Source: a virus
Lineage: Duplodnaviria > Heunggongvirae > Uroviricota > Caudoviricetes
Length of the DNA stretch: 50,883 bases
Reading direction: 5' to 3' (one strand)
IMG/VR virus record: IMGVR_UViG_2874962485_000005
In this document: in pieces, positions 37,745-40,805 of the stretch
How the letters are laid out: every line of letters starts with the position of its first letter
Numbering within the stretch: position 1 is the stretch's first letter
Position numbers and translations under genes: made by a program
Notes under the pieces: model-generated
Told to the model about the DNA's origin: nothing
The model's input: only the letters and a program-made list of their open reading frames with translations
The model's database searches: none

Positions 37745-37769
37745 ACAAAAAAACCCGCATAAAGCGGGT
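37745..37769 (-). terminator. Rho-independent terminator downstream of the ORF6N gene
   Basis: Minus strand ACCCGCTTTATGCGGGT followed by TTTTTTT. Confidence 0.6.
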
Positions 37770-37866
37770 TCTTTCAAGTGTCCATGTCTGCTATTCGCCT
37801 CGCGATACAGCTTTGCGAAGCTTACCGTAATTGAAGCAGTTTATGTGCAAAAATGCAAGAACTTTT

Positions 37867-38376
37867 TTAAAGCTGCATCAACCTTTCCACCAGTTTATCT
37901 CTGCGAACAACAAACCAACCATTGGCTCTCGCCAGTTCCAGCCATGACTCAAGGGAAATAACAATATCATCATCCCGTAACTGAATTGTGGAAACAGTGA
38001 CACCGCCTCTCTGATAACAGAGAACTCGCGTGTCGTAACTTTTCTGGCATGAAACTGGCGTTGACGGATCCCTTTGACTGAAATAGCAGTCTTCCAGTTT
38101 TTCGAACACATCCCACGCCTGATCGGTTTCGAGCATTTTGCCGTGGCGTGCTGCGCCTCGTTCTGTCCAGAGGATGAGGGAGCGGGCTTTGGGTGAAACT
38201 GGATTTTGTGAGTAGTTTAAAGCGACCCGCAATTCTTTAAGGTCATTACCAACAACTTTGAAAAAGTGTTTCCCTTCAACGAAGCGTACTTTGTTCTCAT
38301 GATGATTCTGGCGAATACGCACCGGCTCAGTGCCGTAAAGCTGCGCCAAAAGTTCGGTGGTAATAACAGGAATCTG
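37867..38376 (-). pseudogene. Prophage antirepressor-like protein (ORF6N/Ant-type), C-terminal part, split by IS600
   Basis: ...ELLAQLYGTEPVRIRQNHHENKVRFVEGKHFFKVVGNDLKELRV...; ORF 37867..38514 continues into the IS end. Confidence 0.5.
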
Positions 38377-38419
38377 TGAGGTGTACTGGCAATAGCGGAC
38401 ACTACCATTTGTTCTTTTT

Positions 38420-39238
38420 TTAAGCAGCCATCTGATGATATTTTTCCCTGAAGGCTGCCGGGGAGATATTCCCCAGACGAGAGTGACGACGCTGACGATT
38501 GTAGAAAATCTCAATGTATTCCCGTATTACTGAGATGGCTTCATCCCGGTTATTAAAACGATAGTGGCTCAGGCTCTCATTTTTCAGCGTTCCCCAGAAG
38601 CTTTCCATCGGAGCGTTGTCGTAACAGTTACCTTTACGCGACATTGATGTTTTCAGACCAGACTGCTCCTGTATGACCCGGTAATCGTATGCGCAGTACT
38701 GTGAACCTCGATCAGAGTGGTGGATTAGCCCGGCAGGTGGGCGCTGGCTCCTGAGCGCCATAAACAGGGCTTTACCTGTCAGCTCTTTTGTCATGCGCTC
38801 TCCCATGGCGTAGCCGACAATTTCACACGTATAAACATCTTTGATGCCAGCGAGGTACAACCATCCCTCCTGTGTGGCAACATACGTCAGGTCCGCCACC
38901 CAGACCTGATTTGGTGCTGTAGGAGCGAACGTCTGGTTCAGCAGATTTGGCGCAACTGGCAGATTGTGGTTCGGGTTCGTAGTCGCTCTGAACTTGCGTT
39001 TCTGCTTACAGCGTAGCCTCAGCTCCTTACGAAGACGTGCCAGTCGGTCACGACCAACGATGATGCCATTCTCTGCCAGCTCCGTCTGGAGCCGCCGGGT
39101 TCCATATGTTTCGCGAGTGCGGATATGTGCCACCTTAATCTCCAGTTTTAGCCGCTCATCACTTTGTTTTCTGTCTGAGGGTTCATGCTGTACCCAGTTG
39201 TAATAACCGCTCCTGGATACACCAAATACCTGACACAT
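38420..39238 (-). CDS. IS600 OrfB transposase
   Basis: 272-aa ORF. Confidence 0.9.
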   Translation of the reverse strand: MCQVFGVSRSGYYNWVQHEPSDRKQSDERLKLEIKVAHIRTRETYGTRRLQTELAENGIIVGRDRLARLRKELRLRCKQKRKFRATTNPNHNLPVAPNLLNQTFAPTAPNQVWVADLTYVATQEGWLYLAGIKDVYTCEIVGYAMGERMTKELTGKALFMALRSQRPPAGLIHHSDRGSQYCAYDYRVIQEQSGLKTSMSRKGNCYDNAPMESFWGTLKNESLSHYRFNNRDEAISVIREYIEIFYNRQRRHSRLGNISPAAFREKYHQMAA

Positions 39239-39273
39239 CGCTTCAATGGGAAATTGTTGTCGCCATTGTTCGA

Positions 39274-39576
39274 TTAACGCGTATTTTTCAGCGACTCCTG
39301 TGCAAAATACGCTGTTGCTTTTTTTAATATATCTCGCTCAAGGCGAGCTTCATTTAACGCCTTACGCAGTTGCAGAATTTCAGATTCCAGTTCAGCCACC
39401 GTGCGGGAACCAGGAGTACCGAGCCCTTTTCTGGCGGCGGTAACCCATTGTCCTAAAGTGCCTTCAGGAAGGGATAATCGGGAAGCGCCTTCACTGATCG
39501 AAAGTTGATTTTCAAGAACCGTTCTGACAGCTTCGGCTTTGAACTCTTTAGAGTAACGTTGGGTTTTTCTGCTCAT
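39274..39576 (-). CDS. IS600 OrfA
   Basis: 100-aa ORF. Confidence 0.9.
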   Translation of the reverse strand: MSRKTQRYSKEFKAEAVRTVLENQLSISEGASRLSLPEGTLGQWVTAARKGLGTPGSRTVAELESEILQLRKALNEARLERDILKKATAYFAQESLKNTR

Positions 39577-39640
39577 TATTAGCTCCTTCTGATGCCATTC
39601 TATTTCAGGAAGGAGTGTCCGTTAAACTCAGGCTACCTCA

Positions 39641-39691
39641 CTGGTTATGGGTGATCGGGGAGAGAGTTTCAACAGAGATTTGAGTGGTCAT
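39641..39691 (-). pseudogene. Antirepressor-like gene, first 17 codons (MTTQISVETLSPITHNQ)
   Basis: In-frame with 37867..38376 once IS600 copy 4 and one CTG copy are removed. Confidence 0.45.
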
Positions 39692-39963
39692 AACGATAAC
39701 TCCGTACATTTGGAAATTATCGCCACCGACGACGCCAATCGAACTGGTGGCGAACTGTGCAGGGTTGGCGTAACCGGGTACGGAAACCGGCGAGCCTTTC
39801 GGCTCCCCCACACAGCCCGCCATAAATCGCGAATGTGACTGTGCAAACGATATGAAAAAAGACGCGGGCGCGTCTCATATCGCTCCGTAAACATCCGGGA
39901 CGCCAATCCCGACGCCAGATTTTGCTGGCGCGTGAGGAATATAGCCCCGGATAACAGATTGAG

Positions 39964-40518
39964 TCAACAAACGGTTTTTAGATCCCCGGAAGAGAATGCA
40001 TCACGCATCGGTAGATAGAGCATATATTCAGCAAGATTTAGCCATACATCTACCCGACTGCAGCACGTCCGGAAACACCACTCAGGGTGTGCGTCATTCA
40101 GCAATTCAGCCATTTTACGCTTAGTCATCCCCCGCCCTTCATACCGTTGCCGGAGGACACTAATCAATCCAGGATGCTCTGCCAGCACCTCACTTATGAC
40201 TCTATCAATACATAACGCCTCTGCATCAGTACAATGCGCCAGCCAGGTCTTTTGCTTGCCATTGATCATCTCTCGCAAAAACGCTTCCAGCTCAGGTTTC
40301 TCTATTCCCGCTTTTTTCATCCTGCGCAGGGCTTCATTGACGGCTGTTTTCGTCAATTTTTTGGATGCCAGCAACTGGTTAAACATATTTCCCGTCTTAC
40401 CGCCGCCAATATACGACCAGCGCCCCCACATGCGCAGTTTTCCCTGAATCCAGACACTTTCCAGCGTGGTGAGACGAAGGTGTTCCCCGCTTTTGCCTGT
40501 ATTTGTTGGGTAAATCAT
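39964..40518 (-). CDS. Phage late antitermination protein Q-like
   Basis: ORF 39964..40638; start at ATG 40518 with RBS GGAAGG; lies upstream of the late-region tRNA cluster, as in lambdoid phages. Confidence 0.5.
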   Translation of the reverse strand: MIYPTNTGKSGEHLRLTTLESVWIQGKLRMWGRWSYIGGGKTGNMFNQLLASKKLTKTAVNEALRRMKKAGIEKPELEAFLREMINGKQKTWLAHCTDAEALCIDRVISEVLAEHPGLISVLRQRYEGRGMTKRKMAELLNDAHPEWCFRTCCSRVDVWLNLAEYMLYLPMRDAFSSGDLKTVC

Positions 40519-40805
40519 AAATAACCTTCCTTTCTCCAGATTTCTTGTGTGCGAAAAACACCTTCTGCATGCATCAGGCGTAATTCTTCTTTGGTGTAAT
40601 CGCTGGTTTTTACCCGCCCGTCGATTAAATCGTGGCATGAGCTACAGGCAATCGCTACCTGCATATCGTGTGGTTTTGTCGCTGTTCCGCACGTCCCCGC
40701 CAGCCTGTAATGCGCCAGCACAGAAGTTTCGGGATTGTGATTGCAGTAGCCAGGAATTCTGACGGTGCACATCTGCCCCCGCGCCGCTTTACGTAAATCC
40801 ACCAT
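40515..40805 (-). CDS. DUF1364-family prophage protein (YbcO-like)
   Basis: 96-aa ORF with Cys/His pattern ...CTVRIPGYCNHNPETSVLAHYR...CSSCHD...; stop overlaps Q start (ATGA). Confidence 0.5.
   Translation of the reverse strand: MVDLRKAARGQMCTVRIPGYCNHNPETSVLAHYRLAGTCGTATKPHDMQVAIACSSCHDLIDGRVKTSDYTKEELRLMHAEGVFRTQEIWRKEGYL

Follow-up and report, generated by a model that had tools for sequence, protein, structure and literature searches.

The 50,883-nucleotide stretch of DNA analysed here (IMG/VR record IMGVR_UViG_2874962485_000005, the window in what follows) very probably brings together the late-control end of a lambdoid prophage of Rac/Gifsy-like type, now decayed, and an independent mobile element that was integrated into it by site-specific recombination. 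The point of contact is a tRNA-Gly(TCC) gene of the prophage, and the second element is an island that carries an integrase gene and, downstream of it, exact promoters of phage T7. The layout of the prophage is in itself known biology, and the damage done to it by insertion sequences (IS) is ordinary for Shigella. What is new, as far as we have found, is the repeated use of a phage tRNA by a second element as its attachment site and, more important, the family of islands to which this element belongs, whose promoters are of T7-like-phage types and, for the T7 and K11 types, are matched to phages of the host genus. In our judgement it is evenly balanced whether this is an undescribed family of 4-6.5-kb Enterobacterales islands at tRNA-Gly in which promoters for the RNA polymerase of T7-like phages act as an infection sensor that switches on the island genes and, in the T7 and K11 types, also form a T7-like origin.

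The junction of prophage and island at a phage tRNA-Gly

The prophage side of the junction is a cluster of four tRNA genes, Met/Ile2(CAT), Arg(TCT), Thr(TGT) and Gly(TCC), identified by ARAGORN and Rfam at 37348..37658 on the minus strand (−). An intact E. coli prophage (L001), which aligns with the window at 96-99% nucleotide identity apart from the IS insertions, has the order Q-ORF6N-tRNA(Ile2, Arg, Thr, Gly)-holin-lysozyme-Rz-terminase, with no integrase. From the tRNAs into the antirepressor gene ant (37348-38376) the two are 98.5% identical, several E. coli genomes contain the tRNA-Arg/Thr/Gly part (37348-37560) in 100% identical form, and the homology with L001 stops at 37348, the CCA end of tRNA-Gly(TCC). 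The 3' end of this tRNA gene, TTCGATTCCCGCTGCCCGCTCCA (37348..37370, −), is the core of the left attachment site (attL); the prophage homology ends with it and the island starts at 37347. The proposal of an earlier note on this DNA, that a second element had been inserted in the prophage late region, agrees with what is found there, a junction of the glyU type following directly on the CCA end. Of 5,426 complete E. coli genomes, 381 have the element that starts at 37347, and both E. coli copies examined (L002 and L003) sit at the chromosomal tRNA-Gly(CCC) gene, glyU, beside actS/ygeR. The window junction TGACCTTTCTTAAAGTACTCC is identical to the glyU junction of the L002 island, and that of L003 differs at 2 of 21 bases. 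The L003 island comprises 4,276 bp between 23-bp direct repeats, and the glyU-borne islands in general are bounded by repeats of 18-23 bp. The phage tRNA-Gly(TCC) and glyU share GGGTTCGATTCCC and GCCCGCTCCA (13 + 10 identical bases), separated by a 3-bp difference, GCT in the phage gene versus TTC in glyU.

Given that tRNA genes stand directly beside an integrase at many island borders, the four tRNAs and the integrase might be taken for one tRNA-carrying island, the lambdoid module then ending at the terminator that precedes the cluster. We attach next to no weight to this possibility, as the same tRNA cluster lies between the ORF6N gene or Q and the holin in L001 and L004 with no integrase there (in L004 the Thr and Gly tRNAs precede the holin), and the glyU islands carry none of these four tRNAs. 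Judged by gene order, the four tRNAs belong to the lambdoid module, as the earlier note had supposed; its layout could have failed here, and the intact prophage, with the cluster before the holin and free of an integrase, upholds it.

Sister islands occupy the same prophage tRNA-Gly in E. coli EPSSH018 (L006) and in two IMG/VR loci (L038 and L040); the IMG/VR matches are prophage calls from isolate genomes, not virion DNA, and are silent on packaging. In L006 and L038 the island lies between the phage tRNA-Gly and the holin, its attL being of the glyU type (TTC) and its right attachment site (attR) of the phage type (GCT), followed by phage sequence and the holin, which is the pattern expected from an integrase crossover within the shared core. 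L038 holds the same prophage as the window, 99.8% identical, and in L040 the phage tRNA-Gly is occupied by an island of T7 type whose attL is TTC-type. Taken together with a tyrosine integrase that adjoins the tRNA at its 3' end, and with att pairs in 11 glyU-borne members of the family as well as in L006 and L038, these junctions argue that the integrase/T7 segment of the window is a separate element integrated at the phage tRNA-Gly.

Several features of the window itself speak against this. No attR is found in the window on a search with the att core at up to 5 mismatches, nor is any prophage late gene found in it, and because the window holds neither a complete att pair nor late genes, integration is deduced from attL and the sister loci. 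Further, the attL of the window is phage-type (GCT) up to the CCA, unlike the TTC-type attL of L006, L038 and L040, so that the crossover would have taken place within the last 10 bp, or else the junction has a different history. One alternative is that the integrase/T7 segment was moved beside the phage tRNAs by an IS-mediated or homologous rearrangement, for example by exchange between glyU and the phage tRNA-Gly; the absent attR, an attL that is phage-type to its last base, the saturation of the window with IS elements and the missing prophage late region all suit such an event. Nevertheless we regard it as very unlikely, given that the joint falls exactly on the tRNA 3' end, no IS being present there, that the two tRNA genes agree over no more than 13 + 10 bp, a length usual for an att core but not for a RecA substrate, and that islands of the family are found in the same prophage tRNA-Gly at the three sister loci, two of them with attR and holin and one in a prophage that is nearly identical.

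In the case of site-specific integration, an island of ~4-6.5 kb, normally resident at the 3' end of the glyU tRNA-Gly(CCC), would have used the phage tRNA-Gly(TCC) as its attachment site (attB). The insertion would place the integrase gene, co-oriented, where the holin should be, and the reciprocal junction would read island right end + GCTGCCCGCTCCA + gtcagagtc... holin. An island in the phage tRNA-Gly would lie within the Q-dependent late transcript, co-oriented with it, and would travel within the prophage, with the candidate late promoter upstream of it and facing the same way.

The earlier note had also viewed the late slot downstream of Q as a site for cargo, such as the stx genes of Stx phages, and one part of this view can be kept. 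In phage Rac-SA53 (L027) the pertussis-like toxin genes eplB/eplA are located at 3492-4723, between the Q-proximal promoter/terminator block and the holin, and their presence there makes the slot a genuine site for cargo within this Q family. The island, however, is present because the phage tRNA-Gly mimics its attB, not as an stx-like 'moron' cargo. Stx and other converting lambdoid phages resemble the window in having Q, a short terminated transcript unit, tRNAs and a variable slot before the holin; they differ in that the Q of the window is of the DUF1133 branch and the occupant of the slot is a self-mobile integrase island, not a promoter-less moron.

An island family with promoters of T7-like phages

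The island in the window begins with an intact open reading frame (ORF) for a tyrosine integrase of 534 aa (35629..37233, −; Pfam Phage_integrase), 100% identical copies of which are found in three IMG/VR contigs. The stop codon of int leads straight into a tandem repeat, 3.1 copies of a 121-bp unit (35248..35616, −), each unit containing one exact T7 promoter directed away from int; the three promoters match at 23/23 positions and span 35540-35518, 35419-35397 and 35299-35277 (−). The number of T7 promoter matches expected by chance is zero, even when 3 mismatches are allowed. The 121-bp unit is present in three copies in the window, L035 and L039, in two in E. coli L002 and L003 and in one in L036. 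At 34900..35110 (−) follows an AT-rich tract (18-28% GC) of ACTTAAAG-type repeats, a candidate T7-type origin. The primary replication origin of T7 consists of the promoters phi1.1A and phi1.1B and an AT-rich tract, and the T7 record shows the two promoters and then the tract; the window tract is locally similar to the T7 tract after phi1.1B (score 38 versus 21.3±4.0, 0/300 shuffles). The island thus resembles the T7 primary origin in its tandem T7 promoters and in an AT-rich tract with local sequence similarity, and differs from it in that the tract is located ~230-350 bp downstream, not immediately after the promoter, and that about half of the family is without it.

Across Enterobacterales, 20 species-representative genomes encode relatives of the integrase (65-87% amino acid identity), and in 15 of them the gene stands beside tRNA-Gly(CCC). 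When 23 island loci were scanned for tRNAs, 17 were found to adjoin tRNA-Gly(CCC) and 11 had attL/attR repeats. These 11 delimited islands are 4.3-6.5 kb long, or 7.3 kb in L002 with its IS insert, and come from seven genera, the genus names listed for delimited islands being Escherichia, Klebsiella, Pectobacterium, Morganella, Enterobacter, Citrobacter, Buttiauxella and Proteus. Nearly all islands carry T7-group promoter sequences downstream of int, and two Pectobacterium islands carry variant forms. Of the sequence CACTATAGG, the 53.7 kb downstream of int contain 42 copies and the other 540 kb a single one; over the 23 loci, T7-group promoters are enriched 420-fold downstream of int and are always on the int strand.

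The promoter types differ from island to island. Islands of E. coli and Shigella carry exact T7 promoters, in L002 and L003 in the same context as in the window. The Klebsiella island has exact K11-type sites, which we take to equal the K11 consensus, together with a T7-type site, and 36-nt queries from it match Klebsiella podophages at ~10 sites per genome with 88-93% identity. Islands of Citrobacter, Enterobacter, E. coli and S. flexneri have promoters of the Kayfunavirus type, matched in phages of that group at ~6 sites per genome at 97% and annotated 'promoter' in EcoDS1 and CR44b, and the promoter of the Proteus island matched Vibrio and Klebsiella phages. In Klebsiella pneumoniae ATCC 13883 (L007) two K11-type promoters (one of them exact), one exact T7-type promoter and one further variant stand side by side at 8264-8840, and such mixed specificities suggest the sensing of several groups of T7-like phages. 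The AT-rich tract, with 15-25% GC, is found 230-350 bp after the promoters in T7-type, Klebsiella and some other islands. The genes after the promoters encode Rha, KilA-N or Ant-like proteins, a small membrane protein, and a DUF6971 protein together with a protein of 330-400 aa.

Exact T7 promoters and an origin-like AT tract might also be what is left of a temperate T7-like prophage, with the integrase/T7 segment as its eroded stump, consisting of integrase and early region; some T7-like phages of marine bacteria do carry integrases and use tRNA sites. We consider such an origin highly unlikely. Among 13 post-integrase ORFs from five islands, Pfam and/or PHROGs recognise no RNA polymerase, DNA polymerase, capsid or terminase, the 11 delimited islands follow one compact plan between intact att repeats across their seven genera, and blastn of the island against 50,697 phage records returns promoter-sized matches only.

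It may be asked whether the promoters have a role at all. The copy in the window is broken and the role of the promoters rests on sequence, so that they might be vestigial, coincidental or derived from cloning-vector contamination. To us this is just as improbable as the phage stump, since coincidence is at odds with an expectation of zero chance matches even at three mismatches and with the 420-fold enrichment, always on the int strand, over 23 loci, and contamination with an island that is found in 381 complete E. coli genomes, with exact promoters in the same context in L002 and L003. In addition, the specificity region varies among islands, three of its types are matched to real phage promoter families, and the promoter flanks are not vector sequence (they differ from what we take to be the flanks in pET and pBluescript).

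If the promoters function as their sequence suggests, an infecting T7-type phage would supply the RNA polymerase that transcribes the downstream Rha/KilA-N-type genes from the promoter array, with transcripts starting at the G of ...TATAGGGAGA. The genes to be switched on would be the Rha/KilA-N-type regulators, the small membrane protein, the DUF6971 protein and its partner and, in some islands, the anti-T7 gene RAZR. Where the AT tract exists, the phage polymerase might in addition start local replication, by analogy with the T7 primary origin. The outcome could be defence, hitch-hiking or both, the island acting as a defence or satellite-like element against T7-like phages. We infer both steps on which this picture depends, the action of Q at the candidate late promoter described below and the expression or replication of the island driven by T7 RNA polymerase.

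Weighing against the sensor view is, first, that the promoter type of the Proteus island has no match to Proteus phages in the collection, so that host matching cannot be claimed for every island. Second, no replication, excision-control or packaging gene is recognised among the scanned island ORFs, and for this reason satellite status is unproven. Third, no more than about half the islands have the AT-rich, origin-like tract, and because the Kayfunavirus-type islands are without such a tract, the origin reading cannot be generalised. On the other side, three promoter types (T7, K11 and Kayfunavirus) have counterparts in real phage groups, and there is a link to a known anti-T7 gene, PD-T7-4/RAZR.

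This gene is a zinc-finger/DUF4145 (HEPN) gene that overlaps the int stop in L006, L007 (7624-8256), L013, L015 and L016 (PADLOC 8e-99). Vassallo et al. (2022, PMC9519451) noted of PD-T7-4 that it 'often overlap[s] an integrase gene'; under its present name RAZR, it is an anti-T7 abortive-infection RNase (PMC13017515). The term 'T7 promoter' is absent from PMC9519451, and in PMC13017515 it refers only to in-vitro-transcription templates and to T7's own annotation. The likeness to the integrase elements that carry PD-T7-4/RAZR is therefore that sister islands with 65-87% identical integrases have RAZR at the int stop; the difference is that the T7-type islands of the window, L002 and L003 are without it, and that the promoters are not discussed in the RAZR papers. 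In the window, no RAZR gene stands between int and the promoter repeats.

PLE, directed at phage ICP1 in Vibrio cholerae, and PICMI of marine vibrios are likewise small integrase-bearing islands with few genes, apparently built for one group of lytic phages. Unlike these, the present island is known from sequence alone, and the sensor proposed for it consists of promoters for the phage's own RNA polymerase. Searches of full-text literature, with many subscription papers outside their coverage, found no account either of a T7 satellite or of chromosomal islands that bear T7-group promoters. A response triggered by a phage polymerase has been engineered in the laboratory; of a natural system that uses a phage polymerase as its infection signal, no description was found in the same, incompletely covered literature. 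Should the sensor view be correct, these would be the first defence islands or satellites of Autographivirales to be triggered by a phage RNA polymerase, and the phage's own, highly specific polymerase would provide bacteria, or their parasites, with a tamper-proof signal of infection.

Two further observations concern the genes and repeats of sister islands. A small hydrophobic protein of ~90-105 aa, with a GY..AGYIYGG-like motif recognised by eye, is encoded at 11650-11967 in L003, at 9636-9911 in L013 and at 9699-10007 (−) in L016; it has no PHROG or PADLOC match and could be a membrane-acting effector driven by the phage promoters. In the island of E. coli FT130 (L003), ~13 tandem copies of GATGACCATAGGC lie directly after the integrase gene (9770-9925), and further short repeat arrays follow, TGTGGTCCTATG, TGTATGGCCC in four copies and ATCAATACGA in three, with a degenerate T7-like promoter at their end, ahead of the KilA-N gene. 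These arrays could be iterons or arm-type sites; the island of the window is without the 13-mer array.

The Q-like gene, its candidate target and the RNA switch

The earlier note had read the minus strand as a Q-like gene, an ORF6N-type antirepressor gene split by IS600, a terminator and then the tRNAs, and every one of these elements is found at the place it had given. The layout turned on whether the 224-codon ORF at 39964-40638 (−) encodes a Q-family protein, and the matches indicate that it does. It belongs to DUF1133 (Pfam, E=5e-108), scores 26.6 bits against the Q21-type family Phage_antitermQ (PF06530; cut-off 26), and matches four PHROG families, all of them named Q-like (including PHROG 753, 'anti-termination protein Q-like'). 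A profile of 20 Q homologues matches the solved Q21 structures 6P18/6JNX with E=6.8e-5, colinear at the N- and C-termini, and orthologues in phage records are labelled antitermination protein Q. The mechanical ORF reaches 40638, and translation probably begins at the ATG at 40518, which gives a predicted protein of 184 aa (39964..40518, −), because the E. coli orthologue is annotated so and because this start forms an ATGA overlap with the upstream ybcO-like gene. In Salmonella (L033) a DUF1133 protein of 184 aa, 77% identical to that of the window, precedes isrK. We infer from these matches that the DUF1133 protein is a distant relative of Q21 and a late-gene antiterminator, and from the layout of the locus that it is orthologous to AntQ of Gifsy-1. 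The remoteness of the link within the Q family weighs on this assignment, and the AlphaFold2 model, built with 20 close homologues, is too poor for use (mean pLDDT 52.7, pTM 0.35).

Directly 5' of Q lies a YbcO/DUF1364-like gene (40515..40805, −; Pfam YbcO E=1e-44), in an order that is kept in L001, L004, L005 and L033, preceded by a NinB/Orf-like DUF1367 gene of the nin region (40805..41404, −; Pfam DUF1367 E=5e-98, PHROG NinB/Orf), which is syntenic with L001. The whole series, DUF1367-YbcO-Q, ant where present, a promoter/terminator block, tRNAs and holin, recurs in L001, L004, L005, L027 and L031, with Q as the last of the nin-region genes. The nin region of the prophage also contains a hok/sok-type toxin-antitoxin locus, with Rfam sok at 42891-43065 and a Hok-like ORF at 42741-42953, which is conserved in E. 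coli and Salmonella relatives.

The block in this series offers a candidate for the site at which Q acts. In the window it comprises a candidate late promoter pR' with a Q-loading region (37819..37858, −), a block conserved across phages to which we assign a putative function: a -35 element TTGCAT (37858-37853), a TGn motif with a -10 element TTCAAT (37835-37830), and a -10-like TAnGnT sequence (TAAGCT, 37824-37819), a candidate sigma-dependent pause element, all on the minus strand. Downstream stands an intrinsic terminator (37740..37763, −), the candidate tR', which would also end the ant transcript and which occupies the position of isrJ in Gifsy-1. It consists of the hairpin AACCCGC-UUUAU-GCGGGUU with a U-run (~37763-37740); a scan for promoters and terminators did not list it and it was confirmed by direct folding, the 87-nt terminator RNA folding with z=-4.05 and 0/200 shuffles as good. 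In L004 and L005, which have the same Q and no ant, the conserved block of ~65 bp and the terminator come directly after Q, and in the window and L001 the block comes after ant. It also follows Q directly in Rac-SA53, in Klebsiella phage KpF5 and in Providencia PSTCR8lys. With these three and L006 added, the plan is kept over eight loci, in which Q falls to 43% identity: a -35 of TTGCAT, TTGATT or TTGACT is separated by ~17 bp from a -10, an invariant TAnGnT stands at about +1..+6 and, ~80 nt downstream, there is a hairpin with U-run whose sequence changes across phages and whose stem is kept. In lambda pR' the Q-binding element lies between the -35 and -10, and a -10-like pause inducer at +1..+6.

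On this comparison we interpret the conserved block as a putative pR'-qut-tR' unit, and the terminator at 37763-37740 is probably the tR' of this promoter-pause-terminator block. It would be a concrete candidate for the still undefined pR'/qut of the DUF1133-type Q proteins. The earlier note had suggested looking for a pR' promoter and a qut site downstream of Q; the candidate for both lies after ant and not directly after Q. Speaking against the interpretation, the -10 of the candidate pR' is weak (TTCAAT, no A at -11), and the Rfam isrJ model gives only a partial, sub-threshold match of 18.6 bits, to the terminator half, at the equivalent Salmonella site. Since neither the window nor the Salmonella locus has an isrJ match that reaches the gathering score, the equivalence with IsrJ stays positional. 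In an intact prophage Q would be loaded at this block beyond ant, and reading through tR' would carry transcription on into the tRNAs and the late genes. A further sigma-70 promoter-like site, TTTGCA-18-TATTAT (37668..37697, −), lies just 5' of the tRNA cluster and is a consensus match only.

Between Q and ant lie two RNAs that are missing from the layout of the earlier note. A sigma-70 promoter-like site, TTGACT-18-TATATT (39938..39967, −), the candidate PisrK, overlaps the Q stop codon and ends 7 nt 5' of the start of Rfam isrK at 39931. It is followed by an IsrK-type RNA with a1-b1 target sites (39855..39944, −; Rfam isrK 75.6 bits, c4-a1b1 52.2 bits), which has its own intrinsic terminator (39876-39859), and by a C4-type antisense RNA like that of P1/P7 immI (39743..39827, −; Rfam C4 77.6 bits, E=7e-15). 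This is the order of an immI-type module, a C4 RNA with a1/b1 sites upstream on the same strand and an antirepressor gene after it, except that the antirepressor gene is no longer intact. IS600, an IS3-family element of 1264 bp (38377..39640, −; orfA/orfB by Pfam, bounds from the alignment to the uninterrupted L001), interrupts ant after codon 17 and is flanked by a CTG target duplication. On one side remains a 5' fragment of 17 codons (39641..39691, −), a reconstruction colinear with the ORF6N start of L001, and on the other side a 3' fragment (37867..38376, −; Pfam ORF6N 5.6e-18). When IS600 and one CTG are removed, the gene encodes an ORF6N protein of 185 aa that is 98% identical to the intact E. 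coli protein of L001 and matches PHROG 'anti-repressor' with E=1e-92. As read from the sequence, the antirepressor is inactivated here by IS600 and the module is non-functional.

A Q gene next to an antirepressor gene is an arrangement already known from Gifsy-1, in which the locus antQ-isrK-orf45-anrP-isrJ has been studied experimentally (Hershko-Shalev et al. 2016, PMC4825925). There an RNA switch governs translation of the antirepressor, the upstream RNA being an activator in trans, and AntQ is reported to cause termination read-through (PMC4825925). The window shares with Gifsy-1 a Q-like gene, IsrK just after Q, a C4-type RNA, an antirepressor and then a terminated short-RNA unit; it differs in that its antirepressor is split by IS600 and that four tRNAs and then the foreign island replace the lysis genes. 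We make the comparison by way of the Salmonella protein of L033, whose Q is not assumed to be identical with SL2579. L033 has the order DUF1367-YbcO-DUF1133-isrK-C4-ORF6N-tRNAs, and the first Salmonella DUF1133 locus examined (L031) is without the isrK module. The immI region of P1/P7 (c4-icd-ant) and the CI RNA of P4 are alike in that a C4-family antisense RNA with upstream a1/b1 sites precedes the antirepressor, and unlike in that the module of the window is embedded in a lambdoid late-control region beside Q and has an antirepressor of the ORF6N type. If the block after ant is read as pR'-qut-tR', the isrK-C4-ant module becomes an insertion between Q and its target; PisrK, IsrK with a1/b1, its terminator, the C4 RNA and the ORF6N antirepressor would then form an immI-type 'moron' at that place.

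A second, diverged IsrK/C4 switch is located on the opposite strand, with Rfam isrK at 8012-8088 and C4 at 8113-8200; 3' of it lies an ORF for a Rha-type antirepressor (Pfam Phage_pRha + 'Ash'; locus 7961-8593, +). It belongs to another prophage remnant and has no blastn similarity to the copy at 39743-39944.

Decay and setting of the window

The window is a segment of a Shigella-type chromosome that is saturated with copies of IS1, IS2, IS600 and IS911, including four IS600 copies in addition to the one in ant. Beyond the AT tract the island is interrupted by an IS911-like element of the IS3 family (28654..34879, −) with a TCT duplication. Nested in this element are, at 31993-34690, a member of the IS66 family with ORFs of 225, 115 and 523 aa and, at 29141-31410, a group II intron (reverse transcriptase ORF 29231-30754, Rfam Intron_gpII). 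These insertions are recent, because the related IMG/VR contigs L036 and L039 are without some of them. On the far side the island continues (28130..28653, −) with short repeats and the start of a Rha-like gene, 52 codons long (28284-28130), and matches L003 10577-10984 and L002 11031-11147, until the Rha-like gene is cut by IS1 at about 27361-28129. The copy in the window is thus an IS-riddled fossil, in which the antirepressor, the downstream genes of the island, attR and the late operon are disrupted or gone, and the functions proposed for the intact state could not be exercised in full.

Elsewhere in the window an ipaH-type E3 ligase gene (NEL + LRR) is found at 3719-5434 with the small RNA CssrB beside it at 3408-3590, and a sitABCD-like cluster of four transporter genes at 19975-23424, the first gene of which matches Pfam ZnuA. 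Situated among prophage remnants, the ipaH-type gene, CssrB and the sitABCD-like cluster mark the window as Shigella or enteroinvasive E. coli. The Rfam ALIL pseudoknot, a frameshift signal of the IS3 family, is matched with 120 bits at 16819-16935 and points to another IS3-type element.

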